Positions 3,170 through 49,861 of a stretch of 64,000 nt of DNA are shown one piece after another. The notes under the pieces are model-generated. The model had not been told where the DNA came from and did no database searches. It saw nothing but the letters and a program-made list of their open reading frames with translations. Positions within the stretch are counted from its first letter, which is position 1. Every line of letters begins with the position of its first letter. The stretch is from NCBI GenBank assembly GCA_038087875.1, contig CM075990.1:6636001-6700000 (forward strand), given 5' to 3'. This DNA comes from Malacoraja senta (taxonomy: Eukaryota). The position numbers were made by a program, and so were the translations under genes.

Positions 3170-3520
3170 TAACTACAGGGAAAATGTTCCCGATGTTAGG
3201 GAAGTTCACAACCAGGGGTCACACAGTTCAAGAATAAGGGGTTGGCTATTTAGGACTGAGATGAGGCCAAACTTTCTTCACCCAGAAAGTTGTGAATCTG
3301 TGGAATTATCTGTCACAGAAGGCAGTGGAGGCCAATTCACTGGGGATGTTTTCAAGAGAGAATTACATTTAGCTCTTGGGGCTAGCGAAATCAAGGGATA
3401 TGGGGAAAAAACAGGAAAGAGGTACTGATTTTAGATGAACAGCCATGATCATATTGAATGGCAGTGCTGGCTCGAGGGGCCAAATGGCCTATTCCTGCAC
3501 CTATTTTCTTTGTTTCTATG
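3170..3520 (+). mobile_element. CR1 3' fragment
   Basis: aaaatgttcccgatgttaggg...gttgtgaatctgtggaatt...cctgcacctattttc. Confidence 0.9.
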
Positions 3521-3591
3521 CTTGAGTATATGGCAATAAAACTTGACCACTTGATTTTGAAGCATTCATGCATGGTGGAGGTATAATGTAG

Positions 3592-6119: not shown

Positions 6120-6330
6120 AATCCTACACCTACTAGGGACAATTTACAATTATACCAAGTCAATTAACCTACAAACCTGCATGTATTTGGAGAGTAGGAG
6201 GAAACCGAAGATCTCATAGAAAATCTACGCGGTCATGGGGAGAACGTACAAACTCCATACAGCACCCGTAGTCAGGATCGAACTCGGGTCTCTGGCGCTG
6301 CAAGCGTTGTAAGGCAGCAACTCTGCCACC
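6120..6330 (-). mobile_element. V-SINE (HE1-like)
   Basis: ctagggacaatttac...ggaggaaaccgaagatctc...gtcaggatcgaactcgggtc. Confidence 0.88.
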
Positions 6331-7221: not shown

Positions 7222-7791
7222 TTTAGAAATTATGATAGGCTGCAGTTGAAATTTTGTGTGGAAGGAGGTGAGGAGATTCAGAATCTTGGCAAATAGCCAG
7301 GTGCCTGAATCGGGTTAACCCCTTCCAACCAAAGGCAGATTAGTATGGAAGGGGAAGAAAATGTAACAATTGTTAACATAAGTAAATGGTAGATAAGATT
7401 GGAGATTAGAGAAGATTTATTTAGATATATAGATATGGTAGATACATGCTGACACATAAAATCTGGCTTGAATGGGTCCCAACCCCTTCTAGTAAGATCA
7501 TTCAAGGGGACGGAGCTAAATGTAGATTAACAACTACGGAAGTCACTAATTGTGTAACTACCACCATTAGGTGGATAATTGGTTACAGTGTCGTCATTTG
7601 TAGACACTGTAACCTCACTTTTTTGATTTTTTTTTAATGTCACAATAATGTACACTTTTTTGTTTCTTTGCTTAAGGACAATTTTGAGAGGGATGTAATA
7701 ATTGAATTTAATATTGCAAATGCTCGCCCAACAGCCAGAGACCTAAGGTATTGGTTGCACCACATGTTTAAAAGGTATTAAATAATTTAAA

Positions 7792-10700
7792 ATGCAAGAC
7801 GATAAACAAAAGAAATTTGGAGGAATCACATTCTGCAGTTGGAATATTAGGGGTGCTAATGAACCAATTAAAAGGGGTAAGATTTTTGCACAATTGAAGT
7901 CACTCAATACGGACATAATATTTCTACAAGAAACTCACTTGAAACTGCAAGCTCAAGCCAGATTGAAGGCAAACTGGATAGGCCAAACATACCAATCTTC
8001 ATATATTTCCAAAGCCAGAGGCACAGCAATTATTATTCGAAAATGTATACCATTTAAATCGAAGAATATCATAACAGATAAGGAAGGGAGATACCTTATA
8101 GTTACCGGAGAGATTCATGCTACCCCAATTACCTTGGTAAATATTTATGCGCCTAATTTTGATAATCCCCAATTTTTTAATAAAATCCTGAATATAATTA
8201 CAGAGTTCAATTATCAAAATGTGATAATTGGGGGAGATTTTAACTGTGTTTTAGATCCATACTTGGATAAATCTTCACAACGGAGAAGGGGCAACACAAA
8301 ATCTAAAACCAGGGAAATCTTAAATACTTACATAAAAAATACAAATATAACAGATGTTTGGAGGATCGCTAACCCTGTCGGAAGGGAATACTCGTTTTAT
8401 TCAATGGTACACAAAACGTATTCACGTATCGACTATTTCTTAGTGGATACAAAACTAATTCCCTATACACTGAATCCAAAGTATCACAATAGTATAATTT
8501 CTGATCACTCACCATTAACTTTTTTTTTTTAATTAGAAGGAATGCCTACTAATAAATCGTTTTGGAGGTTTAATCCTCAAATTTTAAATGACCCACAAGG
8601 GGAAATATATTTAAAACAACAGATGGAACTTTTTAAAAAGAATAATGATACCCCAGAGACCTCACCAGTTCTACTATGGGAATCATTCAAAGCAGTTATT
8701 AGAGGATCTATAATCTCATACCAAGCTTTTTTAAATAAAAGGAATAAGAAAGAACAAAGGCAGTTAGAACAACAAATTGGAGAATTGGAATTAGATAATG
8801 CTAAAGAGCCAACTATAGACAAACATAATAAAATAACAATAATGAAATTTAAATTAAACAAAATATTATCAGCAAATGTTATTAGATTATTTCAAATTAC
8901 AAAACAGGAACATTTTGAATTTGGGGATAAACCACACAAACTTCTGGCTTGACAACTGAAAAAACGGGAAAAGGATCACACGATTTTAAAGATTAAATCA
9001 GATAAAGGGGAATTGTTAACACTACCTAAGGATATTAATAAAAGATTCGCTCAATTTTATCAAAACTTATATACATCTAAAGCGGTAGCAGATAGTACCA
9101 AAGTTAGAGAGTTCCTGGATAATTGTAATCTCCCAAAACTCAATTTGAGTGAACAAGAGGAATTAGGTGCACAAGTCTCAACTAAGGAAATAGAAGAAAC
9201 AATAAATACATTAAAGAATGGAAAAACACCAGGACCAGATGGTTTTAGTAATGAATTTTATAAAAGATTTTACGAGATAATTACACCACGACTACACAAA
9301 ATGTATACATATGCTTTTAAAGAACATACACTTCCAGAAACATTAGCGGAATCAATGATTACACTTATACCTAAAAAAGGTAAAGATTTAGAAGATCCGG
9401 GTTCTTATAGAGCTATTGCGCTGTTAAATACAGATCAAAAAATATTAGCAAAAACATTAGCTAGAAGGCTAAGTAACTATTTTAGTAAATTAATAAATTC
9501 GGATCAAACAGGGTTTATACCCAAGAGATACTCAAGCAATAACCTGAGACGTCTGTTTAATATAATGTACTCACATAAAACCGAAGAACAAGACTTATCA
9601 ATTATTTCACTGGACGCAGAAAAAGCATTTGATCAAGTGGAATGGGATTATATGGTTAAAGTATTGCAAACATTTCAAATGGGAGAGAATTTTATCGCTT
9701 GGGTAAAATTATTATATGATAGGCCTACTGCCAGAATATTAACTAATAATATTTTGTCCTCGAAATTTCAGTTATCAAGGGGAAATAGACAGGGTTGTTC
9801 ATTATCACCTCTGCTATTTGCTCTTGTAATAGAACCGTTAGCAGAAAGTATTAGGATACATCCGAACATTCATGGGTACAATACAAAATACTCAAATAAT
9901 AAGATATCTTTATACGCAGATGATGTACTACTATATATCACAAAATCACAAATTAGTATACCAAATATATTAAATTTAATAGAGGAATTTTGATCCTTTT
10001 CAGGATATAGAATAAATTGGAATAAAAGTGAAATTATGACGATTAAACCTCAAGACCCAACACACCTGTTAAAATTCCCTTTTAAAATCGCTTCAGAAAA
10101 ATTTAAATATTTGGGAATTGAAATTACTAGAAAATATAAAGCTCTATTTAATGCAAACTATATGCCCTTACTCAATAAACTAAACACACTGATTAAAACC
10201 TAAATGATTTTTTTACCACAAAATTTATATCTATTCCAGTCAATACCGATAATTGGATGCTGATATTAAAAACTTTATATGGGACTATAAATCCCACAGA
10301 ATCCAAAGAAAACATTTGTGTAAACCTAAAGAATTTGGTAGATTATCACTCCCCAATTTTTTATATTATTACTGGGCCACAAATGTCAAAAATATGATTC
10401 ACCTGTTGGACAATTCAGCCCAGCAGGTGGATTGGATAGTAATGGAGAGAGAGGACTGTTCCCCTTTTAACATAGGAGCGATCCTTCTCTCACCAACAAA
10501 AATGAAGAATACAATATATAGTAAAAATCCAATTATTCATAGTACAATTAGAATTTGGAAACAAATAAAATTAACGTTAAAATTAAGAAATCTATCACTT
10601 CTCTCACCTATAATGAATAACCCTTCGTTTAAACCTTCTATGATAGATAGATCTTTTATAAATTGGGAAAGATTAGGAATTAAAATGTTTGGAGATATGT

Positions 10701-11325
10701 ATGATAATGGAAGTTTTTTAAAACATTTTACCAACTACAACTTAAATACAACTTGAATAGAAATCAATATTTCAAATATTTTCAAATACGTGACTATTTG
10801 AAAAAGTATACATGAGAATATCAAAATATGTCTCCTGACCTATTAGATGGGATAATGAATATAAAAGCAGAATCAGCTAATTTAATATCATACCTATATA
10901 ATTCCATTTTAAACATAGAAATTCCATCATCGGATGGGATTAGAAGAGAATGGGAACAGGACCTAGCTATAAAAATCTCGAAACAGAGTTGGGATAAACA
11001 CATATTTTAGAATGAAATTTTTGAAATTTTCACTAAATTATTTAAAATCAAACTGAAATCGAATGCAGAATTGATTATTTTTGGAACAATAGAAGCAAGT
11101 TTGGAGCTGACTTCGTTTCAAAGGAGTTTTCTTAATTATGGCTTAATAACGGCAAAAAAACTGATACTGAAATTCTGGAAAAATGCTCCTACGCCAACAA
11201 TAAAAATGTGGACTTCTAATATGTCGGAATTGTTACACCTAGAAGATATGAGATTCCTCCTAGCAGGTAAACAAGACCAATTCCAAAAGATTTGGTCTCC
11301 ATATATCAACTTATTACAAACATAA
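7792..11325 (+). pseudogene. L1 ORF2 (APE endonuclease plus reverse transcriptase), disrupted
   Basis: SWNIRG, FLQETH, NIYAPN, GGDFN, SRIDY, SDHSP; KTPGPDGF, SLDAEKAFD, GNRQGCSLSPLLF, YADD; frameshift at T-run ~8520-8530, stops at 8950-8952 and 9991-9993, apparent deletions near 10200 and 11010. Confidence 0.95.
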
Positions 11326-12119: not shown

Positions 12120-12424
12120 CATCGGGCAGCATGTTGTTGTTGCCTTGCAACGCCAGAGACCCAGGTTCGATCCCGACTACGGGTGCTGTCTGTATGGAGT
12201 TTGTATGTTCTACCTATGACCACATGGGCTTTCTCCAGGTGCTCCGGTTTCCTCCCATACTCCAAAGACATACAGGTCTGTTGGTTAATTGGCTTCTGGA
12301 AATTGTAAGTTGTCCCTAGTGTGTAGGACAGTGCTCGTGTAAGGGGGATGATCGTTGGTTGGCGTGGACTCAGTGGGCCGAAGGGCCTGTTTCCATGCTG
12401 TATCTCTAAAGTCTGAAGTCTAAA
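12120..12424 (+). mobile_element. V-SINE (HE1-like)
   Basis: ggttcgatcccgactacgggtgctgtctgtatggagtttgt...gggccgaagggcctgtttccatgctgtatctctaaa. Confidence 0.9.
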
Positions 12425-14029: not shown

Positions 14030-14312
14030 GGTTGGCATGCTGGTGCAGCAGTAGAGTTGCAGCCTTAGAGCGCTTCTGGCGCCAGAGACCCGGGTTCGAT
14101 CCTGGCTACAGGTGCTTGTCTGTACGGAGTTTGTACGTTGTCCCCGTGACCTGCGTGGATATTCTCCGAGAACTTTGGATTCCTCCCACACTCCAAAGAT
14201 GTATAGGTTTGTCGGTTATTTGGCTTGGTGTAAATGTAAAAATTGTCCCTAGTGTAGGATAGTGTTACTGTGCGGGGATCGCTGGTGGGTGCGGACTCTC
14301 TAAACTAAATTA
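14030..14312 (+). mobile_element. V-SINE (HE1-like)
   Basis: tggtgcagcagtagagttgc, gggttcgatcctg, V-core, ctctaaactaaa tail. Confidence 0.9.
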
Positions 14313-15790: not shown

Positions 15791-16402
15791 GAAAAGACCA
15801 CCAAGTGCTGGAGTAACTCAGCGGGTCATGTAGCATCTCTGGAGAATGTGGATAGGTGTCGTTTCAGGTCTTCAGACTGGAGAGGGGTCCTGACCCAAAA
15901 TGTCACATATCCATGTTCTCCAGAACTACTTTAAAAAAAAAAATCAAAATAAACTTTATTCCAAATAAAAAAATATATACAAAACCAAGAACTGTGCAAA
16001 AATTCTTCCGACATTCTTGAAGGGTATACACACATTCATTAGCGTCGTAGGGTCACGACACGGAAGGGACGTCACGACCGCGGTGCCACAGGTGCGGTCC
16101 GGGCTGTCGCCGAGGGAGGAAGGACAGAGCCGCGGCTCGAGAGGCTAACAGAGGCTAAGAGGTTTGCCACGCACTGCAAGGGAGCAGTGGACCAGACAGG
16201 AAGAGCGGACGGAATTACTACTAGACAGCCAAACCAGTAGGTAATTTACGGCTGGGGTGAGTACTTTCCCATTTATAGGAGGTAGGATTATATAAATAAG
16301 GGGTGTATCAATAGGAGGTAGGATTATATAAATAAGGGGTGTATCAATATAGTAATCCGGGTAGGGGATTCTTAAATAGGACCAGTTAATTACTTATATA
16401 AG

Positions 16403-17365
16403 ATGGGCGGCCAGGAGATGTGCCAAAACTGTGAGATGTGGGAATTTGTCGACACCATTGATGTAGATGATGTAGATGATCCCTACAGCTGCAGTAAGTG
16501 TTTGAGGCTAGCGGAACTCGAGCTCCGCATTGAGGAGCTGGAGACCCAACTTCATACGCTGCGGTACATCAGGGAGGGGGAGTATTACCTGGATGTTTTG
16601 TGCCAGGGGATGGTCACACCGACCAGTTTAACTAATTCAGTAGTGAGTGAGCAAGGAAAGGAAGGTGTGGCCATAAGCGAGGCAGGTAGGGGGAACCAGG
16701 AGGAGATGCGGCAGGAGCCACAGCCCTTGTTCCTGACGAGCATGACCGAGGCTCTTACTCAATGTGAGGACGGGATCAGGGGCTGTGGGAGGGATGAGCA
16801 ACCTGGCTGCAGCACCGTGGATCAGGGGGACATTCAAGAGGGGGGAGTTAGAAGAAATGCCGTTGTGATAGGGGATAGTATTATTCGGGGGGTAGATAAG
16901 GTTCTCTGCGGCCAGCAGAACATGTCCCGAAGGCTGTGCTGCCTACCCGGTGCTAGGGTTAAGGATATCTCTGCGATGCTGGAGAGAAATTTGCAGAGGG
17001 AGGGGGAGGATCCAGTGGTCGTGGTCCATGTGGGGACCAATGACATAGGAAGGACGAGGAAGGAGGATCTGCTGAAGGAGTTTGAGCAGTTAGGGAATAA
17101 ATTAAAAAGCAGAACCTCGAGGGTACTGATCTCCGGATTGCTACCTGAGCCACGGGCCAAATCGGCGAGAGTACGTAAAATTAAAAAGCTGAATGCGTGG
17201 CTCAAAGACTGGTGTGGGAAAAATGGGTTTGGTTTCTTGGGCCACTGGCACCAGTACTGGGACAGGGGGGATCTGTTCTGTAAGGACGGACTTCACCTGA
17301 ACGGTGCTGGGACTGGGGTCCTGGCAAATCATATAACTAGGGCAGTAGAGAGGTCTTTAAACTAA
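16403..17365 (+). CDS. CR1 ORF1p: zinc finger, coiled coil and SGNH/GDSL esterase
   Basis: CQNC..CSKC, heptad LAELELRIEELETQL, GDS, PGA, HVGTND, DGLHL; ATG to TAA uninterrupted. Confidence 0.92.
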   Translation: MGGQEMCQNCEMWEFVDTIDVDDVDDPYSCSKCLRLAELELRIEELETQLHTLRYIREGEYYLDVLCQGMVTPTSLTNSVVSEQGKEGVAISEAGRGNQEEMRQEPQPLFLTSMTEALTQCEDGIRGCGRDEQPGCSTVDQGDIQEGGVRRNAVVIGDSIIRGVDKVLCGQQNMSRRLCCLPGARVKDISAMLERNLQREGEDPVVVVHVGTNDIGRTRKEDLLKEFEQLGNKLKSRTSRVLISGLLPEPRAKSARVRKIKKLNAWLKDWCGKNGFGFLGHWHQYWDRGDLFCKDGLHLNGAGTGVLANHITRAVERSLN

Positions 17366-20348
17366 GTAGCGGGGGGGAGGTATCAAGGGTGGTAATAACG
17401 GCAGGGGTAGAGGAAATAGAGCAGGGTATCAGTGGGGAAACGGAAAATCAAAATGTGACAGGAGGATCCAGAATGTGTGAAGATAAAGCTCTAGATGTAA
17501 AAGAGGCAAAAACAGAAAGGAAGGGTAGTAAAAATCATCTGAAAGTGCTGTATCTAAATGCACGGAGTATTCGAAATAAGATAAATGAATTAACGGTGCA
17601 ATTAAGTATATATAGTTATGATATCGTGGCCATTACGGAGACATGGCTGCAAGGGGATCAGGACTGGGAGTTAAATATAGAGGGGTACTCGACAATTAGA
17701 AAAGATAGACAGGAAAGAAAGGGAGGAGGGGTGGCCCTTTTAATAAGGGAGGGAATAACGGCAATAGAGAGGAAGGATATTGCGTTGAAGGATCAGGATA
17801 GTGAAACAGCTTGGGTACAGATAGAGAATAACAAGGGGAAAAAAACACTAGTGGGTGTAATTTATAGACCTCCAAATAGCTGTGACGCTGTTAGTCAGAA
17901 CATAAATCTGCAAATAGTTGACGCATGTAAAAAGGGAACTGCTGTAATCATGGGGGACTTCAATTTTCATATTAATTGGGCAAACCAAACTGGGCAGGGT
18001 AGACTAGAGGAAGAGTTTATAGAATGTATTAGAGACGGGTTCCTAGAACAGTATGTCACAGAACCGACAAGGGGGGAGGCAATCTTGGATCTGGTCCTGT
18101 GTAATGAAGCAGGATTAATTAAAAATGTCATAGTTAGGGACTCGTTGGGAACAAGTGACCACAATATGGTCGAATTCCATATTCAAATAGAAGGGGAGCA
18201 GGTTGAAACTCAGGCTAGGGTACTTAGTCTAAATAAGGGGGATTATGAAGGTATGAGGACTGAGCTGATCAAAGTTGACTGGGATAGCAGACTCAAGAAT
18301 AAGACGGTACATGAGCAGTGGTGTACGTTTAAGGATCTACTGTATAACCTTCAAGAAAAATTTATTCCTATGAAGAAAAAAGGGGTAAGGGTAAGAACAG
18401 TCAGCCATGGCTCAGTAAAACTATAAAGGATAGTATTCGGCTGAAGGCAAGGGCATATAAGGTAGCCAGAGATAGTGGGAGGGTAGAGGATTGGGAAGCA
18501 TTTAAAGGTCAGCAAAAAATAACTAAGAGATTAATTAAGACGGGGAAAATAGACTATGAAAGGAATTTAGCGAACAACATAAAAACTAATAGTAAGAGTT
18601 TTTATAGCTATATAAAAAGAAAAAGGGTGGCTAAGGTGAACGTTGGTCCATTGGAGGGTGAGACTGGAGAGTTGTTGGTGGGGAACATGGAAATGGCAAA
18701 GGCATTAAACGAGTATTTTGTATCAGTCTTCACCATAGAAGACACAAAAAATATTCCAACGCTGGATAAACAGGGGGCGGTAGGAATGGAGGAGCTAAAT
18801 ACTATTAAGATCACCAAGGAGGTGGTATTAGGGAAATTAATGAGACTGAAGGAGGATAAATCCCCTGGGCCTGATGGATTACATCCAAGGGTCTTGAGGG
18901 AGATAGTGGTGGGGATTGTGGATGCATTGGTGATAATTTTCCAAAACTCCCTGGAGGCAGGAACGGTCCCAGTGGATTGGAAAATGGCCAATGTAACACC
19001 TATATTTAAAAAAGGAAGTAAACAGAAGGCGGGTAACTATAGACCGGTTAGTCTAACATCGGTGGTGGGTAAAATGTTAGAGACAATTATTAAAGAAACA
19101 CTAACGGGGCACTTGGATAAACATGACTTCATCGGACAGAACCAGCATGGCTTTGTGAAGGGGAAGTCCTGTTTAACGAATCTGCTCGAATTCTTTGAGG
19201 AAGTAACAACCCGGGTGGATAAAGGGGAACCGGTGGATGTGGTATACTTGGACTTCCAAAAGGCTTTTGACAAGGTGCCACATAAGAGACTATTGCTAAA
19301 AATAAAAAATTATGGGATTGGGGGTAATATATTAGCATGGGTAGAGGATTGGCTAACAAATAGGAAGCAAAGAGTGGGGATAAATGGTTCATATTCGGGA
19401 TGGCAACCGGTAACTAGCGGGGTTCCGCAAGGGTCGGTGCTGGGACCCCAGTTGTTCACAATTTATATAAATGATTTGGAGGAGGGAACCAAGTGTAATA
19501 TATCAAAATTTGCGGACGATACAAAAATGGGAAGAAAAGTAGGGGATGAGGAGGATAGGAAGAGTCTGCAAAAGGATATAGATAAGCTAGGTGAGTGGGC
19601 AACAACTTGGCAGATGAAATTTAATACTAATAAATGTGAAGTCATTCACTTTGGGAAAAAAAATGATAGGGCAAGTTATTTTCTAAATAAGGAGGAGCTG
19701 CGTTGTAATGCAACGCAAAGGGATCTAGGGGTAGTAGTACATGAATCACTAAAAGTTAGTATGCAGGTGCAGCAAGCTATCAGGAAGGCCAATGGAGTTT
19801 TGGCCTTTATTGCTAGGGGGATTGAGTATAAAAACACGGAGGTCTTGCTGCAGCTGTACACAGTATTAGTGAGACCACATTTGGAATACTGTGTACAGTT
19901 CTGGGGTCCATACTTAAGAAAGGATGTACTGGCCCTGGAGGCAGTGCAGCGAAGGTTTACAAGATTAATTCCTGCAATGAGGGGATTGACATATGAGGAA
20001 AGGTTAAGTAGGCTGGAACTCTACTCTTTGGAGTTTAGAAGAATGAGAGGCGATCTCATTGAAACATATAAGATCGTGAGGGGCCTTGATCGGGTGGATG
20101 CACCGAGGATGTTCCCAATGATAGGGGAAACTAGAACTAGGGGACATAGTTGCAGAATAAGGGGGGGCTCTTTTAAAACTGAGATGAGGAAGAACTTCTT
20201 CACCCAGAGGGTGGTTAATTTATGGAATTCACTGCCCCAGGGAGCAGTGGAAGCAGAAACATTAAATATATTTAAGTCTAAAATAGATGGTTTTTTAGCT
20301 GCCAAGGGGATAATGGGCTACGGGGAGAGGGCAGGGATATGGACCTAG
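17356..20348 (+). pseudogene. CR1 ORF2 (APE endonuclease plus RT) with a single 1-nt frameshift at ~18375-18385
   Basis: YLNARS, ITETWL, YRPP, MGDFN, LDLVL, SDHN; SPGPDG, NYRPVSLTS, LDFQKAFD, GVPQGSVLGP, FADD, RPHLEY. Confidence 0.93.
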
Positions 20349-21334
20349 GTAGGGTTAGTATAGTAAGACCTGAGTGATCTCCTGGACAAGTGTCGATCGC
20401 CTGGATTGGGGTCGGAGAGGAATTTCCCGGATTTTTTTCCCGAATTGGACCTGGGTTTTTATCCGGTTTTTTGCCTCCCCCAGGAGATCACGCGGTTCTT
20501 GGGGTGGAGAGGGGTGATAGCGGTATAAAGGGGAGGGTAGTGTCTTGTGTTCTGTGTCTTGTGTCTACTGTTTGTGGGTAGGGGTGTCTGTTTGGTGTTC
20601 AGCCATGAGCGAATGGCGGTGCGGGCTCGATGGACCTGGTGGTCTACTCTCGCACCTACTTTCTATGATTCTATGATTCTATGTATCAATGTTCCCAGAA
20701 ATATCATTTTACCCGGCACCCTTGGATTCAAGAGGCCCCCTGGGGTGATATCCCTTCCCTTGTTTGTGGGGCGTCTACACCATACCTGCCTCTCAATGTC
20801 CAGCAGCGGAAGGACCCGAGACTGTGGTCCTCCCCCACAGAGCCTTGGCGTTGGCTGCATCGAGCTTCAATGCGTCCCTCAGCATGTACTCCTGCAGTCT
20901 GCAGCGGGCCAGTCAGCAACATTCCCCGACGGACACACTGCCTGACCAGCTGAGTTGCTCGAGCACTTTGTGTCTTTTTTTGTAAACCAGCATCTGCAGT
21001 TCCTTTCTCATAGCTTTTCGCTTAACGTGACAATAATAAACCTAAACTTTTATAGTCAGGCCTGAATAATAAGCTGTTTGCTGACACCACGTTCGGATGT
21101 GCTGTTGTGTTGTGAGTGGGAAGGGGAGGAGGGGACTGCAGTTGTTCTTCAGGTCCCTGGATCAGGAGAGAGGAGCAATGGCACATGAGAATTAATTTGT
21201 CTTTGTACCTCAGGCTATGCTGCAGGTGTTTCTGTGGAAAGAAACCAGTGCAGGGCCGTGGCTAAGACACGGTTCCACACGGGTGCCCCTGAGTGCAGGA
21301 GCAGAATGCTGACTGGAGCTCTGAGGGCTTTAAA

Positions 21335-21845
21335 CGTTAGACTTGTAGACATTAGATGTGCAGCGCAGAAACCGGCGCTTTGTCCCACTGAATCCGCGCA
21401 GACCTGCGATCACCACGTCCGCTAACACTATCCTACACACCAGAGACAAGTTACAATTTACACAAGCCAATTAACCTACAAACCTGTACATCTTTGGAGT
21501 GTGGGAGGAAACCGGAGCACCTGGAGAAAACCCATGCGGTCACAGGGAGAACGTACAAACTCCCTACAGACAGCACCCGTGGATAGGATTGAACCCGGGT
21601 CTCCGGCGCTGTAAAGCAGCAACTCTACAGGGCCTGTCCCACTTGGGCGTCATTTGCACGTCACGCAGATGGCCGCAAAGATTTTGTACATCCCAAAATC
21701 CTGGGGCGCCGCCCATCAATGCCTACATCACCACGCACCATGTATGCGTAATGCGCATCATGCGCGCATCACGTGTGCGTCATGACGCGTAAATGATGTC
21801 GCGTAAATGACGCCCAAGTGGGACAGACCCTTACCGCTGCATCGC
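21335..21845 (-). mobile_element. V-SINE interrupted by a MITE
   Basis: gcagcaactcTAC[MITE]TACcgctgc reconstitutes the SINE head ggcagcaactctaccgctgc. Confidence 0.88.
21629..21831. mobile_element. PIF/Harbinger-like MITE, subfamily 1
   Basis: TIR AGGGCCTGTCCCACTTGGGCGTCATTT...AAATGACGCCCAAGTGGGACAGACCCT; 3-bp TSD TAC. Confidence 0.88.
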
Positions 21846-22768: not shown

Positions 22769-23500
22769 ATTATTATCGGGCAGATTATTATCTCAATGGG
22801 GTTAGGTTAGGTAAGGGGGAGGTGCAGCGAGACCTGGGCGTCCTTGTACACCGGTCACTGAAAGTTGGCGTGCAGGTACAGCAGGCAGTGAAGAAAGCTA
22901 ATGGAATGTTGGCCTTCATAACAAGAGGATTTCAGTACAGGAGTAAAGAGGATCTTCTGCAGTTGTATAGGGCTCTGGTGAGACCACATCTGGAGTATTG
23001 TGTACAGTTTTGGTCTCCTAATTTGAGGAAGGACATCCTTGTGATTGAGGCAGAGCAGCGTAGGTTCACGAGATTGATCCCTAGGCTTGTATTCACTGGA
23101 GTTTAGAAGGTTGAGGGGGAATCTTATAGAAACATATAAAATTATAAAAGGACTGGACAAGCTAGATGCAGGCAAAATGTTCCCAATGTTGGGCGAGTCC
23201 ACAACCAGGGGCCACAGTCTTCGAATAAAGAGGAGGTCATTTAAGACTGAGGTGAGAAAAAACGTTTTCACCCAGAGAGTTGTGAATTTATGGAATTCCC
23301 TGCCACAGAGGGCAGTGAAGGCCACTGGATGGATTTAAGAGAGAGAGATAGAGCTCTAGGGGCTGGTGGAGTCAAGGGATATGGGGAGAAGGCAGGCACG
23401 GGTTATTGATAGGGGACGATCAGCCATAATCACAATGAATGGCGGTGCTGGCTCAAACGGCCGAATGGCCTCCTCCTGCACCTATTTTCTATGTTTCTAT
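22769..23500 (+). mobile_element. CR1 3' fragment inserted in a minus-strand SINE tail
   Basis: ADYYLNG..RDLGV..RPHLEYCVQFW; internal deletion near 23082; (TTTCTATG)n tail; GACT duplicated at 22765-22768 and 23501-23504. Confidence 0.9.
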
Positions 23501-23954
23501 GACTCACCGAGTCTACAATGACCAATGATCCCCTCGCACTAATACTATCCTACACACACTAGGGACAATTTACAATTATACCTGGTCGGCATGAATTGGG
23601 TGGGCCGAAGGGCCTATTTCCACGCTGTACCTCAAAAGCAAAGTCTAATTTTACCTAACAAACATTCTCTGAACTGCCTGCAATGCGTTTGTCTCCTTGC
23701 ATTGAAGTAGTCTAAAACTGCAGAAAGAGGTTGCAAAATGTTCTTTACAAGTGGAAATTCTTTCCACTTACTGACAGGAATTGGCAATAAATGTGACTTG
23801 TCAGCAATGTCCATGAAAACAAATCTAAACAGAGGCCTGGAGCCAGAGCTGAAACCGGTACTCTGCTGATTAAATGATTCACCAAATTTCTAGCTCTGGT
23901 TTGAGAGAAACATTTCAGATGAAACTGGGGATAGAAGGAGAGGAATGGGTATAG

Positions 23955-35919: not shown

Positions 35920-36692
35920 GAGTATTCGTCCGAGAAACGGAGTCGTTCCTCAACAAGTCCTACAGTACGATTGTTACACCTAAGGTACTGGAAGAGAGAA
36001 GGTGGGAGACGGTGAGAAAGGGAGGGAAGCATGGAATGCCAACGTCCCCGGGTGTTGTACCTCTTGTGAACAGGTTCACCCGCTTAGAAGCTGTTGGGAC
36101 AGAAGACGTGTTTACACTGAGCGGCGGACTGGCTTGCGATGCGAATAGGGCTGTTGAGCAAAAACCAAAAAGGCCTAAGGCAGGCAACGCCATTGTGGTG
36201 GGAGACTCCATTGTGAGAGGTACGGACAGGGGTTTCTGCGGCAACAGACGGGATGCGAGGATGGTGTGCTGCCTTCCTGGTGCCAGGATCCAGGATATCA
36301 CGGACAGAGTGCAGAAAATCCTCAAGGGCGAAGGTGAACATCCGGAAGTGGTAGTGCATGTCGGCACAAACGATGTCGGAAAGGGGATGAATATTCTGCA
36401 GCGTGACTTTAGAGATCTCGGAAAAATGCTGAAAAGCAGGACCTCCAGGGTTATTATCTCCGGTTTGCTTCCAGTTCCTCGTGCTGGAGAGAGCAGGAAC
36501 AGGGAGATACGGGACCTGAACGTGTGGCTGAGGAACTGGTGCACGGGGCAGGGATTTAGATTCTTAGATCACTGGGATCTGTTTTGGGGTAAGGGGGAAC
36601 TGTACAAAAGGGACGGATTGCATCTTAACAGGTGTGGGACCAGCATTCTGGCAGGCTGGTTTGCCACTGCTACACGGGTGGTTTTAAACTGA
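35920..36692 (+). pseudogene. CR1 ORF1 SGNH esterase, 5'-truncated
   Basis: NRF..L, VVGDS, CLPGA, HVGTND, DGLHL. Confidence 0.88.
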
Positions 36693-39600
36693 ATAAGGGG
36701 GGTGGGGTGTCGAATGGGATAGTGGAGGATGGAGTTAAAGGGAAAGGGTTTCTTAAATGTGTGAGCGTAGAGACAGAGGGGTGTAAAATGAGGGTAGAAG
36801 CAATAGGTAGCAAGGTGAAAAGTAAAAGTGGCAGGCAGACAAAACCAGGGCAAAAATCAAAAAGGGCCACTTTTCAACATAATTGTATAAGGGGTAAGAG
36901 TGTTGTAAAAACAAGCCTGAAGGCTTTGTGTCTCAATGCAAGGAGCATTCGTAATAAGGTGGATGAGTTGAATGTGCAGATAGCTATTAATGACTATGAT
37001 ATGGTTGGGATCACGGAGACATGGCTCCAGGGTGACCAAGGCTGGGAGCTGAACATCCAGGGATATTCAATATTCAGGAGGGATAGAGAGAAAGGAAAAG
37101 GAGGTGGGGTAGCGTTGCTGATTAGAGAGGAGATTAACGCAATGGAAAGGAAAGACATTAGTTTCGAGGATGTGGAATCGGTATGGGTAGAACTGCGAAA
37201 CACTAAGGGGCAGAAAACGCTGGTGGGTGTTGTGTACAGGCCACCTAACAGTAGTAGTGAAGTTGGAGATGGTATCAAACAGGAAATTAGAAATGCGTGC
37301 GACAAAGGCAAAACAGTTATAATGGGTGACTTCAATCTACATATAGATTGGGTGAATCAAATTGGCAGGGGTGCTGAGGAAGAGGATTTCTTGGAATGTA
37401 TGCGGGATAGTTATCTAAATCAACATGTAGAGGAACCAACGAGAGAGCAGGCTATTTTAGACTGGGTATTGAGTAATGAGGAAGGGTTAGTTAGCAGTCT
37501 TGTTGTACGTGCCCCCTTGGGGAAGAGTGACCATAATATGGTTGAGTTCTTCATTAGGATGGAGAGTGACATTGTTAATTCAGAAACAATGGTTCTGAAC
37601 TTAAAGAAAGGTAACTTTGAGGGTATGAGACGTGAATTGGCCAAGATTGACTGGCAATTAATTCTAAAAGGGTTGACGGTGGATATGCAATGGAAGACAT
37701 TTAAAGACTGCATGGATGAACTACAAAAATTGTTCATCCCAGTTTGGCAAAAGAATAAATCAGGGAAGGTAGTGCATCCGTGGATAACAAGGGAAATCAG
37801 GGATGGTATCAAAGCGAAGGATGATGCGTACAAATTAGCCAGAAAAAGTAGCATACCGGAGGACTGGGAGAAATTCAGAGACCAGCAGAGGAGGACAAAG
37901 GGCTTAATTAGGAAAGGAAAAATAGATTATGAAAGAAAACTGGCAGGGAACATAAAAACTGACTGCAAAAGTTTTTATAGATATGTGAAAAGAAAGAGAT
38001 TAGTTAAAACAAATGTAGGTCCCTTGCAATCAGAAACAGGTGAGTTGATCATGGGGAATAAGGATATGGCGGACCAATTGAATAACTACTTTGGTTCCGT
38101 CTTCACTAAGGAAGACATAAATAATCTGCCGGAAATAGCAGGGGACCGCGGGTCAAAGGAGTTGGAGGAATTGAGTGAAATCCAGGTTAGTCGGGAAGTG
38201 GTGTTGGGTAAATTGAATGGATTAAAGGCCGATAAATCCCCAGGGCCAGATAGGCTGCATCTCAGAGTACTTAAGGAAGTAGCTCCAGAAATAGTGGATG
38301 CATTAGTAATAATCTTTCAAAACTCTTTAGCTTCTGGAGTAGTTCCTGAGGATTGGCGGATAGCAAACGTAACCCCACTTTTCAAGAAGGGAGGGAGAGA
38401 GAAAACGGGGAATTACAGACCAGTTAGTCTAACATCGGTAGTGGGGAAACTGCTAGTGTCAGTTATTAAAGATGGGATAGCAGCACATTTGGAAAGTGGT
38501 GAAATCATTGGACAAAGTCAGCATGGATTTAGGAAAGGTAAATCATGTCTGACGAATCTTATAGAATTTTTCGAGGATGCAACTAGTAGCGTGGATAGGG
38601 GGAGAACCAGTGGATGTGGTGTATCTGGACTTCCAGAAGGCTTTCGACAAGGTCCCACATAAGAGATTAGTATACAAACTTAAAGCACATGGCATTGGGG
38701 GTTCAGTATTGATGTGGATAGAGAACTGGCTGGCAAACAGGAAGGAAAGAGTAGGAGTAAACGGGTCCTTTTCACAATGGCAGGCAGTGACTAGTGGGGT
38801 ACCGCAAGGCTCAGTGCTGGGACCCCAGCTATTTACAATATATATTAATGATCTGGATGAGGGAATTGAAGGCAATATCTCCAAGTTTGCGGATGACACT
38901 AAGCTGGGGGGCAGTGTTAGCTGTGAGGAGGATTCTAGGAGACTGCAAGGTGACTTGGATAGGCTGGGTGAGTGGGCAAATGTTTGGCAGATGCAGTATA
39001 ATGTGGATAAATGTGAGGTTATCCATTTTGGTGGCAAAAACAGGAAAGCAGACTATTATCTAAATGGTGGCCGACTAGGAAAAGGGGAGATGCAGCGAGA
39101 CCTGGGTGTCATGGTACACCAGTCATTGAAAGTAGGCATGCAGGTGCAGCAGGCAGTGAAGAAAGCGAATGGTATGTTAGCTTTCATAGCAAAAGGATTT
39201 GAGTATAGGAGCAGGGAGGTTCTACTGTAGTTGTACAGGGTCTTGGTGAGACCACACCTGGAGTATTGCGTACAGTTTTGGTCTCCAAATCTGAGGAAGG
39301 ACATTATTGCCATAGAGGGAGTGCAGAGAAGGTTCACCAGACTGATTCCTGGGATGTCAGGACTGTCTTATGAAGAAAGACTGGATAGACTTGGTTTATA
39401 CTCTCTAGAATTTAGGAGATTGAGAGGGGACCTTATAGAAACTTACAAAATTCTTAAGGGGTTGGACAGGCTAGATGCAGGAAGATTGCTCCCGATGTTG
39501 GGGAAGTCCAGGACAAGGGGTCACAGCTTAAGGATAAGGGGGAAATCCTTTAAAACCGAGATGAGAAGAACTTTTTTCACACAGAGAGTGGTGAATCTCT

Positions 39601-39725
39601 GGAACTCTCTGCCACAGAGGGTAGTCGAGGCCAGTTCATTGGCTATATTTAAGAGGGAGTTAGATGTGGCCCTTGTGGCTAAAGGGATCAGAGGGTATGG
39701 AGAGAAGGCAGGTACAGGATACTGA
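36683..39725 (+). pseudogene. CR1 ORF2 (APE plus RT) with a 1-nt insertion at ~38598-38602 and a premature TAG at 39228-39230
   Basis: LNARS, ITETWL, MGDFN, SDHN, SPGPD, DFQKAFD, GVPQGSVLGP, FADD. Confidence 0.93.
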
Positions 39726-41085
39726 GTTGGATGATCAGCCATGATCATATTGAATGGCGGTGCAGGCTCGAAGGGCCGAATGGCCTACTCCTGCACCTAA
39801 TTTCTATGTTTCTATGTTTCTATGTAAGGTTTACGATCTGGATATACACGGAATCAAATGAGGCATCAGGTTTTCTGGCAGTTGTCTTGTTTGCAGTGTC
39901 ATTTAAATAGGAGCTTGCTATATTCTTAATTTGGATCTGATTATATATTTTCCAGCCTCCCAAGAAAGCTGTGTATTGTATCAGCAGAGCACATTCACTC
40001 ATTCTGTAGGTAACATTTGGTAAGCATAGTTCAAAGTGAGTGATTTAGTACGGATGTGATTCAAAAGATATTGGCACTGGTGGAAAGGAAGTGCGTGATC
40101 TCACTTTTGAAAGTATTGCTCCTGCAATGAAAAGTTCTTTATTCGGGAGACATTTGAAGGAAGTTGATGAATATTTGTTTGGTTGGTTGAAAGGTTATAA
40201 TGAATGGCAATCATGGGTGTTTATTTTCTACCATGGAACGTTCCTAATGAATTAAAAACTTCTGTACAATTTAAAAAAAGGCACCTCTTTCATCATTTCC
40301 TGCATAAGGAAACAAGGGTTGAAATCCATGCCGTTGCACAAGTGCTTGACAAGTTCACACCAAATTCCTCCTTGAAAGTTGAACGGAAGATCACTGGGTT
40401 TTAGACAGTGGAGACAAGACCGTCAATCATATGTGATCAAAGGTGCAATAATGTTTGGAGTCTGATATGACCCGGTGCATTTCTTTCAATGTAGGCTAGA
40501 AACATCAGTGCTGTTGTATTTTGCAAAGCTTGTTACAGATCAGAGCGTAGTGTCCCAAAGGTCCACTCAAGCAAGTTAATACACTGCTGATTTTCCAGTG
40601 ATTAATCTTAATCACACGAATATTGGTGCTCTTGGTGCTGTTTCGGCTCAATGCGCACCAAGTCCTGTTCGTTTCCATTCAACAAGCCCTGGCTCTGATT
40701 TATGGAGCCTCCCTACAGTTGCCAGCCTTCCCCACAACAAAATTAAGTCTACGTTGGAGAAATGAACCGAGGCAAGCAGACTTGTGCAAGAAGAGGCCCC
40801 GCCACTGGAACCTGGTTGGATGGCAACATACTGGACAAATTCCGCTTCCTCGAACGAGTCCACTGTTTTCAACTAACCTGGCCCCAGGAGGTGGGTGCTG
40901 CATTGTCAGGAGGCTGTAAAGACTCTTTCCCCTCCAGCCTCTTATCTTCCCAGCCGTCGGATGAGTCTCAGCTCGTCCGCTTCTGTGGATTCCTGATTCC
41001 TCCCACGCTCATTTATTGCCTGTGCTTTCCACAGATGCCCTAACCTCTGAACTTCCTCCTCAAAACTACTTTACACTTGCCCAGA

Positions 41086-44379: not shown

Positions 44380-45400
<1,021 letters not shown>

Positions 45401-47078: not shown

Positions 47079-47720
<642 letters not shown>

Positions 47721-48357
47721 GTGAGACTGGGGGCAAGGCTGGGAAGCAGGAGCTGTACAGAGGCGAGGTGAACCATATTATCACTGCCTGAGTGAGACAA
47801 AGTCTGGCAAAAGGAATTAATTGTGGGTTCCATTTCTTGCCGAATTATGACAAGCCTCTTGGGACTTGGTTTAGTTTCAAGTCTGAACAAAATCCTGGCA
47901 AGTGAAAAATACATTTGCATTTTGTTGACCCATGTGGCTGTGAATGCTTGCCACACTCCAAATCGATGTGACCACCTTTGATACCTCTTGGCTCGCGTCC
48001 CGTTGCCGCTGTTGAAACGTGGTGGTTGATCCTTTCAGGCAGTGGAAAATGCGTGTCAGAGCATAAAATCGTAAAAGGCTTGGCCAAGACAGAGAATGGT
48101 AACCTCTTTATTCATGCATTCTGCACTGGTGAGCTGCTCCCCAACAATCAACTAAAAGCATCTGTGGTCATGTAAAAGTATGGGTGACCCCCTCATGAAC
48201 CTTGCTATCGCTGCACCATTGTAAACACTCCTGTGGCCCTTTCCATCACGGAGAGGTGGAAACACAGGCTGGAACAATTGGAACTGGTCGCTCCGACATC
48301 GGAAACCCCAGTCCGGATACCTGCCGACGGTTGGAGCGGCTGCAGAAACCTTTTATA

Positions 48358-49325: not shown

Positions 49326-49765
49326 TGGAGCAGCTGGGCTTATCTACTCTGGAGTTTAGAAGGATGAGAGGGTATCTTATTGGAACATATAAGATTATTA
49401 AGGGTTTGCACACTCTAGAGGCAGGAAACATGTTCCCGATGTTGGGGGAGTCCAGAACCAGGGGCCACAGTTTAAGAATAAGGGGTAAGCCATTTAGAAC
49501 TGAGACGAGGAAACACTTTTTCTCACAGAGAGTTGTGAGTCTGTGGAATTCTCTGCCTCAGAGGGCGATGGAGGCCGGTTCTCTGGATACTTTCAAGAGA
49601 GTGCGAGATAGGGCTCTTAAAAATAGCGGAGTCAGGGGATATGGGGAGAAGGCAGGAACGGGGTACTGATTGGGGATGATCAGCCATGATCACATTGAAT
49701 GGCGGTGCTGGCTCGAAGGGCCGAATGGCCTACTCCTGCACCTATTGTTTGTTGTCTATTGTCTA
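49326..49765 (+). mobile_element. CR1 3' fragment with (CTATTGT)n tail
   Basis: LEFRRMRG..TYKI..RTRGHSL..FFSQRVV.LWNSLP. Confidence 0.92.
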
Positions 49766-49861
49766 CACTACCAAAAGTTGTTTGTTTTATTCTAATTTCA
49801 TGTTTTAATGTAAATACTTGGAATTAAATTCCTCCTAACTGCCAGAGTTGGTTTTGAATCA

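Follow-up and report, generated by a model that had tools for sequence, protein, structure and literature searches.

A candidate programmed −1 ribosomal frameshift at U_UUA_AAC between ORF1 and ORF2 of esterase-type CR1 retrotransposons

The translation of the second open reading frame (ORF2) of long interspersed nuclear elements (LINEs) is a long-standing question that has been answered experimentally for few elements, namely mammalian L1 and silkworm SART1, both of which use reinitiation; in SART1, ORF2 is reportedly reached by UAAUG stop/start coupling. In this study, we analysed a CR1-type LINE, element 1, in a 64,000-nt stretch of the genome of Malacoraja senta (assembly GCA_038087875.1, contig CM075990.1, positions 6,636,001 to 6,700,000), hereafter the window, which lies within a genome of 1.94 Gb. 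The first open reading frame (ORF1) of element 1 encodes an esterase and ends in TTTAAAC directly followed by a stop codon. From comparative sequence evidence, we consider it highly probable that esterase-type CR1 LINEs make their ORF2 protein by programmed −1 frameshifting at U_UUA_AAC before the ORF1 stop.

The CR1 site shares its heptamer class and its phase with the retroviral Gag-Pol and coronavirus 1a/1b sites (U_UUA_AAC in IBV), its downstream element lies near the canonical distance of 5-8 nt (PMC3919603), and a ratio of structural protein to enzyme fusion is likewise predicted for CR1. Unlike in those systems, the host element is a LINE lacking a protease, the heptamer runs straight into the stop codon, and the 3′ element is a G-run, without a predicted hairpin; the site is therefore a candidate variant of Gag-Pol- or 1a/1b-type frameshifting that departs from it in the folded stimulator. 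Like CR1, L1 and SART1 must express the downstream ORF of a bicistronic LINE RNA, and a UAAUG is present in one of the CR1 families studied here (family I). In L1, a spacer separates the two ORFs and the ORF2 protein (ORF2p) is free, whereas CR1 has overlapping frames in a fixed −1 phase and a slippery site. For the Dictyostelium L1-clade elements TRE5-A and TRE3-A, which differ from CR1 in clade and in ORF1, a review figure legend states that a −1 frameshift is needed for ORF2 (PMC5911963); neither an experimental test nor a signal for TRE5-A was seen in the portions covered, and the word 'frameshift' is absent from those of further TRE5-A literature. For Paramecium LINEs, +1 shifts, reinitiation or readthrough have been suggested (PMC5405496). 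CR1 subgroup 7, with ORF1 type IVB (zinc finger/leucine zipper plus esterase; PMC4120745, Metcalfe and Casane 2014), has the same ORF1 architecture, an APE-RT ORF2 and vertebrate hosts. Frameshifting is unmentioned in the portions covered of that paper and of the esterase structure paper PMC3905857, and 'CR1' does not occur in the portion covered of a 2016 frameshifting review, which gives unusual initiation for mammalian LINEs (PMC5009743). We found no report of CR1 frameshifting in the open literature, a search that did not cover the original chicken and turtle CR1 papers, which may mention the overlap.

The junction of element 1 and conservation of its heptamer

Element 1 is organized as follows.

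16092..20683, + strand: element 1, a near full-length CR1-type LINE of family C (98.5-99.4% identity to six genome copies, up to 4.6 kb)
16403..17365, + strand: ORF1, 320 aa, with N-terminal Cys-x2-Cys pairs and a C-terminal SGNH esterase (PF13472, E 5e-14), ending S-L-N-stop
17356..17362, + strand: putative slippery heptamer U_UUA_AAC, abutting the ORF1 stop, invariant in 8/8 lineages
17363..17365, + strand: ORF1 stop TAA (TAG or TGA in other lineages), read from the sequence
17371..17377, + strand: G7 run, 8 nt past the heptamer, a candidate stimulator (G-run conserved among junction types)
17362..17550, + strand: −1 frame linker without stops, about 63 codons from the heptamer to the endonuclease, including ATG 17473 (frame analysis)
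17551..20348, + strand: ORF2, APE endonuclease (PF03372/PF14529) and reverse transcriptase (PF00078)
20660..20683, + strand: 3′ tail of CR1 type, three 8-nt units, read from the sequence and at the same offset in other copies

ORF1 runs from ATG 16403 to the TAA at 17363-17365. A previous sequence-only reading had placed TTTAAAC (17356-17362) in X_XXY_YYZ phase at the end of ORF1, with a stop-free −1 frame into the endonuclease and an in-frame ATG at 17473. These coordinates hold, and the −1 frame contains 0 stops over 17341-18426 and carries the APE endonuclease; a break in ORF2 had gone unremarked. One base is lost in an A-run near 18380, which disrupts ORF2 of the window copy, and the window copy of element 1 is dead through this single-base loss. 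The loss is absent from 10/10 other copies compared, and five of ten other family C copies have an unbroken 997-codon −1 frame from the heptamer. Family C is young (median divergence 0.2% among sampled copies), with a 501-nt junction that is identical in 21/40 scored matches.

Element 1 has the features of esterase-type CR1: a zinc-finger-like Cys motif and SGNH esterase in ORF1, and APE plus reverse transcriptase (RT) in ORF2. Its RT scores 48% to protein P0126 versus 33% to P0125, which was judged L2-like, in comparisons that are pairwise only and involve no tree with named references. Its nearest named ORF1 homologues are from rays and sharks, and its end (20660-20683) fits the TTCTATG-type 8-nt repeat tail that we take to be a CR1 feature. 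The 5′ untranslated region (UTR) of element 1 contains an exact 36-nt tandem duplication at 16275-16349.

The junction was sampled with a search pattern built on DGLHLN, an esterase motif that excludes the heptamer and is located ~70 nt upstream of it. This pattern had 9,569 matches in the genome versus 2 in controls. TTTAAAC plus a stop was present in 24 of the first 30 copies in genome order, and the remaining 6/30 differed by single changes. The same signal occurs in a second element of the window, and both element 2 and the heptamer-free pattern show the heptamer to be more than chance.

35925..39825, + strand: element 2, a diverged, 5′-truncated CR1 of family B1 (52% esterase identity to family C)
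36683..36702, + strand: element 2 signal, comprising heptamer, TGA and G6 run, read from the sequence

ORF1 of element 2 ends in T-TTA-AAC followed by TGA (36683-36692), with an open −1 frame. A wider set, built from searches for rarer variants and one metagenome contig (L061), comprised 236 loci with the DGLHLN motif after removal of 8 duplicates and 86 weak metagenome or prokaryote loci; 205 were placed in families A-H and 31 fell outside them. The heptamer plus stop was found in 179/236 of these loci, a set in which most of the 33 family C loci came from a junction-containing query, and so are not an independent test, and in which a few segmental duplicates remain. A second pattern, the heptamer plus G-run, gave 10,318 matches versus 104 in controls; an esterase was detected upstream in 20 of the first 30 of these loci, and most of the others end ORF1-like in L-N. 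In a metagenome scan, one of 24 loci (L061) was a true relative. Sixty-three prokaryote loci were dropped as relatives, being weak GDSL hydrolase matches (two inspected), and a scan of viral contigs found no relatives. A different arrangement was seen in another metagenome contig, L063, in which a distant esterase ORF ends GGT-TGA-CTA after 1301 and continues in the same frame into an APE endonuclease. L063 is a single copy with a Met in the linker, and its UGA-CUA is a readthrough context; it is possibly a parallel recoding solution.

Codon usage was then compared among eight lineages (seven from this genome and L061 from the metagenome), each represented by the column majority of its family, or by a single copy for family H. 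T-TTA-AAC was invariant in 8/8 lineages, at esterase identities of 41-90%. Forty-eight residues with a synonymous choice were invariant across the lineages, and three of them kept a single codon: Cys TGC and the TTA and AAC of the heptamer. Outside the heptamer a single codon was thus kept at 1/46 invariant residues, and at 0/11 of the other Leu residues, and TTA is the rarest Leu codon in the test (8/131). The codon preceding TTA encodes T, V, S, G, G, A, G and H in the respective lineages (six amino acids) and always ends in T; it is the sole such column among 43 columns with variable residues, where the mean third-position T is 0.22. The following stop is TAG in three lineages, TGA in one and TAA in four. 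Identity at fourfold sites was 0.19-0.43 in 20/28 lineage pairs and 0.57-0.85 in the other eight. This codon pattern fits selection on seven nucleotides rather than on residues. The free synonymous variation named beforehand as the adverse outcome was not seen: T, TTA and AAC are invariant in 8/8 lineages while other synonymous sites are largely saturated. In family I, Asp-GAT precedes TTA in 39/39 matched copies, a figure that is circular for the heptamer, because it was the heptamer pattern itself that brought this family to light.

At the protein level, 45 of the 54 top ORF1 homologues end in L-N; these include named proteins of rays, sharks, coelacanth, Xenopus, turtles and a bony fish. 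Their −3 residue takes 11 values, and 1/45 cannot be encoded by a codon ending in T, compared with 27 at −4 and 21 at −5. The ending is T-L-N in two models from the Komodo dragon. Three proteins at 29-33% identity either end in Y-L-N or read F/L-K-L...G-G and continue into the endonuclease. In five more distant esterase ORF1s, known as proteins only (P0058, P0060, P0061, P0062 and P0064), S/A-K-N lies about 10-12 residues before the end and could hide A_AAA_AAC.

Two features of these data count against frameshifting as read here. The lineages are kin (B, D, E and G at 75-90%, and C with F), which leaves about four or five independent lineages and makes the counts non-independent; and the −6 and −7 positions of the homologues also give 1/45, so the protein-level test is not decisive alone. 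An alternative is that L-N is a need of the esterase protein, with its codons retained through descent or through some function at the DNA level (as a recombination or promoter-like site) and ORF2 made from a separate or spliced transcript. Consistent with it, L and N are invariant residues, in a set chosen from L-N-ending matches; a second junction motif in the family G linker indicates that module swaps happen nearby; and the F-K-L-encoding TTTAAACT also occurs at the 3′ ends of amniote CR1 ORF2s in the portion covered of the PMC4316615 supplement. The saturation of synonymous sites elsewhere and the absence of L-N from more distant esterase ORF1s argue against it, as do the RNA reads and the AUG-less family A1 described below, and we regard this alternative as very unlikely.

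Reading frame and start codons

The −1 frame holds the first endonuclease motif in nine of ten junction types, at 33-110 codons past the heptamer and with 0 stops on the way, whereas the other frames of the same linkers contain 1-11 stops. The variable ORF2 phase that was also looked for was accordingly not seen. Shuffled linkers remain open, depending on the lineage, at frequencies of 0.0005-0.29 over the whole linker and 0.016-0.88 before the first ATG; these odds were not multiplied together because of the kinship among lineages. In families A2, B1 and I, differing ORF1s lead into one ORF2, with linker lengths of 110, 82 and 66 codons, respectively, and each family holds the −1 frame upstream of the ATG that they share; the family I majority is also open in this frame. 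Linker indels common to copies, with the G-run excluded, are 9, 3 and 3 nt long. Taken on sequence grounds, the linker is best described as a flexible tether that must stay open, with weakly constrained residues; amino-acid selection on it was not upheld, the codon-position signal being weak.

Modular exchange is also seen at these junctions. Locus L380 and element 2 (36746-39823) are 96% identical over ORF2, and families A2, B1 and I (L380, element 2 and L392) have one ORF2 and 3′ end with differing ORF1/5′ modules. Because these families share ORF2 and the 3′ end but not ORF1, ORF1 swapping is apparent among CR1 families. In family G (L197, L195 and others), the linker contains a second heptamer-stop-G-run motif in the ORF2 frame, which resembles the family I junction and suggests that a new ORF1 module was added before an old junction.

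Termination followed by reinitiation at a downstream AUG or near-cognate codon, either AUG-independent as in L1 or at UAAUG as in SART1, would give ORF2 without a shift, and the conserved motif would then be a reinitiation signal. In-frame ATGs are indeed present in the linkers of families C, A2, B1, B2, E and G, and the L1 ORF2 start tolerates any sense codon (cited in PMC1965478; PMC5009743). The positions of the in-frame ATGs among families, however, range from codon 3 to codon 268. ATG 17473, which had been proposed as the reinitiation alternative, exists in family C and proves to be family-specific. In family A1, the first in-frame Met is at codon 268, past the catalytic endonuclease motifs ETW (84), GDFN (189) and SDH (257). 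The A1 endonuclease-start motif has 2,259 exact matches in the genome, the median divergence of family A is 1.8%, and three of ten fetched A1 copies have an intact 986-codon −1 frame. No Met precedes SDH in 20 of the 23 A1 copies that reach SDH (nine more of 32 are without the heptamer or shorter). The A1 endonuclease differs from the others mainly at third positions (88/64/137), and so has been under selection as a protein. Judging from these copies, AUG reinitiation cannot make the A1 ORF2 endonuclease, and an ORF2 without an AUG could not start normally from its own transcript either. L061, from another organism, and family D likewise lack a Met ahead of the first endonuclease strand.

The UAAUG overlap is confined to family I, where it is in frame; element 1 reads TAA-GT, the overlap is absent from 10/10 junction types, and L392, a relative of family I type, lacks it. 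Reinitiation also leaves unexplained the exact X_XXY_YYZ heptamer with its constant T, the fixed −1 phase and the stop-free stretches before the ATGs. On the evidence assembled here we judge reinitiation improbable, and prefer −1 frameshifting.

Several further observations nevertheless weigh against that preference. The A1 linker holds near-cognate TTG and ATA codons. The UAAUG of family I counts here too, and 11/39 family I copies have lost one G of the second, G6 run, a loss that disrupts the −1 frame immediately ahead of a further ATG; no diagnostic linked change marks these 11 copies as a clade. Five further family I copies are expanded at the second G-run, and the neighbouring G5 runs are stable. 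The broken copies may come from homopolymer slippage; alternatively, families that have this ORF2 and 3′ end may have mobilized them in trans, or reinitiation may be genuine in family I. The old family F (20% divergence) was left unresolved by the frame test, with six stops in its column-majority −1 frame and 0/16 copies open, and the old family G has linker indels of 20 nt and 1 nt in three copies each. Linker mismatches show little bias among codon positions (16/17/22 and 6/5/3). The RNA depth at the heptamer, in reads from a related species, was ~4-10.

Those RNA reads fall on both strands and are therefore uninformative on promoter or level. Upstream of ATG 17473, 19/19 and 13/13 covering reads have a deletion of net length 3 nt. 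Neither splice joints nor heptamer indels were found among 236 and 203 reads, and no heptamer change was found in DNA contigs of three further runs plus one presumed-RNA run. The lack of splice joints speaks against a spliced ORF2 transcript. The reads also bear on transcriptional slippage, in which the fusion would arise from a base gained in the transcript, at the T/A runs or at the G-run, and not from the ribosome. The length of the G-run is unstable in old copies, and in the database protein P0126 the esterase is read on into the F/L-K-L frame, which suggests that the underlying copy has an indel in the heptamer or immediately ahead of it. Slippage at the G-run, however, could not bypass the stop, which precedes that run; tracts of three are short for transcriptional slippage; and no heptamer indel of at least 10% was present in the RNA reads at their low depth. 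We consider slippage of the polymerase scarcely credible.

The downstream G-run and the remainder of the window

A run of six or seven G begins 7-10 nt past the heptamer in nine of ten junction types; the run is longer and ill-defined in family F, and is G5 in family I. In 3,850 nt of two elements, runs of at least six G number 6 and 1. The G-tracts noticed earlier thus exist, with G7 after an 8-nt spacer, whereas the G-quadruplex (G4) suggested for them gains little from prediction. Three of these predictions also go against the frameshift reading: no stable downstream hairpin was predicted over 100 nt in three lineages (z −0.19, −1.17 and 0.43); a three-tier G4 motif was found in 0/10 junction types; and a two-tier motif, found in 6/10 types, is also common in the element body (21/80 and 15/80 bins). 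A hairpin stimulator was accordingly rejected. One 65-nt window had z −2.4 at just −6.4 kcal/mol; pseudoknots are outside the model, and the region is nearly C-free. RNAfold with G4 enabled placed a G4 in 5/10 types and none in family C. In reporters, G4s 5-8 nt past UUUAAAC shift ribosomes (PMC3919603), and Yu et al. obtained up to ~7% shifting with a G-rich element 6-8 nt on, as in CR1, although their G4s were stable and engineered or transplanted (PMC3919603), in contrast to CR1. A G4 may yet act as the stimulator in CR1 but is not favoured.

A candidate long-range partner was found in family C only.

20472..20481, + strand: pyrimidine tract of the 3′ UTR, a complement of the G-run at the junction and candidate partner (−22.1 kcal/mol; 0/40 local shuffles as good)

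A general long-range partner for the G-run was rejected, as the best sites in 18 other junction-matched copies were scattered or outside the element. Beside this tract, the long 3′ UTR of family C contains a perfect 12-nt inverted repeat (20374-20385 and 20480-20491).

The remainder of the window consists of further repeats. A broken L1-like LINE ORF2, with endonuclease and RT pieces recognized by eye, lies in an AT-rich stretch at 7786-10756 (+). A SINE-like repeat of 200-330 nt occurs in many copies (514-837, 6122-6327, 12146-12410, 14046-14296, 21362-21642 and others), as do CR1 3′-end fragments (for example, 3176-3523, 22782-23501 and 49334-49768). Long ORFs at 44468-45390 and 47081-47723 were rejected as genes, being CA/TG microsatellite artefacts.

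Proposed mechanism and significance

The Gag-Pol-like ORF1-ORF2 fusion that had been proposed for element 1 is supported by the conservation of both heptamer and phase. U_UUA_AAC is among the shiftiest heptamers (PMC5009743). In the mechanism that we propose, most ribosomes would terminate at the stop and release the ORF1 protein (ORF1p), and a minority would re-pair tRNA-Leu and tRNA-Asn one base back, from UUA to UUU and from AAC to AAA, and continue. The product would be an esterase-linker-APE-RT fusion of ~1,300 aa (1,315 aa in family C and 1,295 aa in A1), made at a low fixed ratio with ORF1p in excess, as in Gag-Pol. The pause would likely be due jointly to the stop codon next to the heptamer and to the G-run positioned at the mRNA entry channel, and the G-run could act by binding a protein, by forming a two-tier or intermolecular G4, or by long-range pairing.

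We lean, by a modest degree, towards extending this to the entire clade of esterase-type CR1 elements, spanning sharks to amniotes and perhaps hosts outside the vertebrates, in which a Gag-Pol-like fusion would be made through an ancient U_UUA_AAC-stop shift with an undescribed, structure-free G-run stimulator, probably protein-bound. CR1 is, among families of transposed elements, the most abundant one in birds, crocodilians and turtles as well as in snakes (PMC4316615), and if the shift holds clade-wide, this would be the commonest programmed frameshift site in these genomes, at roughly 10,000 copies in the present one. With a shift site that is defined and conserved, a single reporter allows a test of how ORF2 is translated. 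If the proposal is true, annotations that place the start of CR1 ORF2 at an internal Met would be mistaken, and the recoding repertoire would gain a natural −1 frameshift that lacks a folded stimulator. The N-terminus of CR1 ORF2p would then carry the lipid-binding esterase and the self-associating ORF1 domains, and the presence of these domains on ORF2p would explain how the enzyme joins its own ribonucleoprotein.

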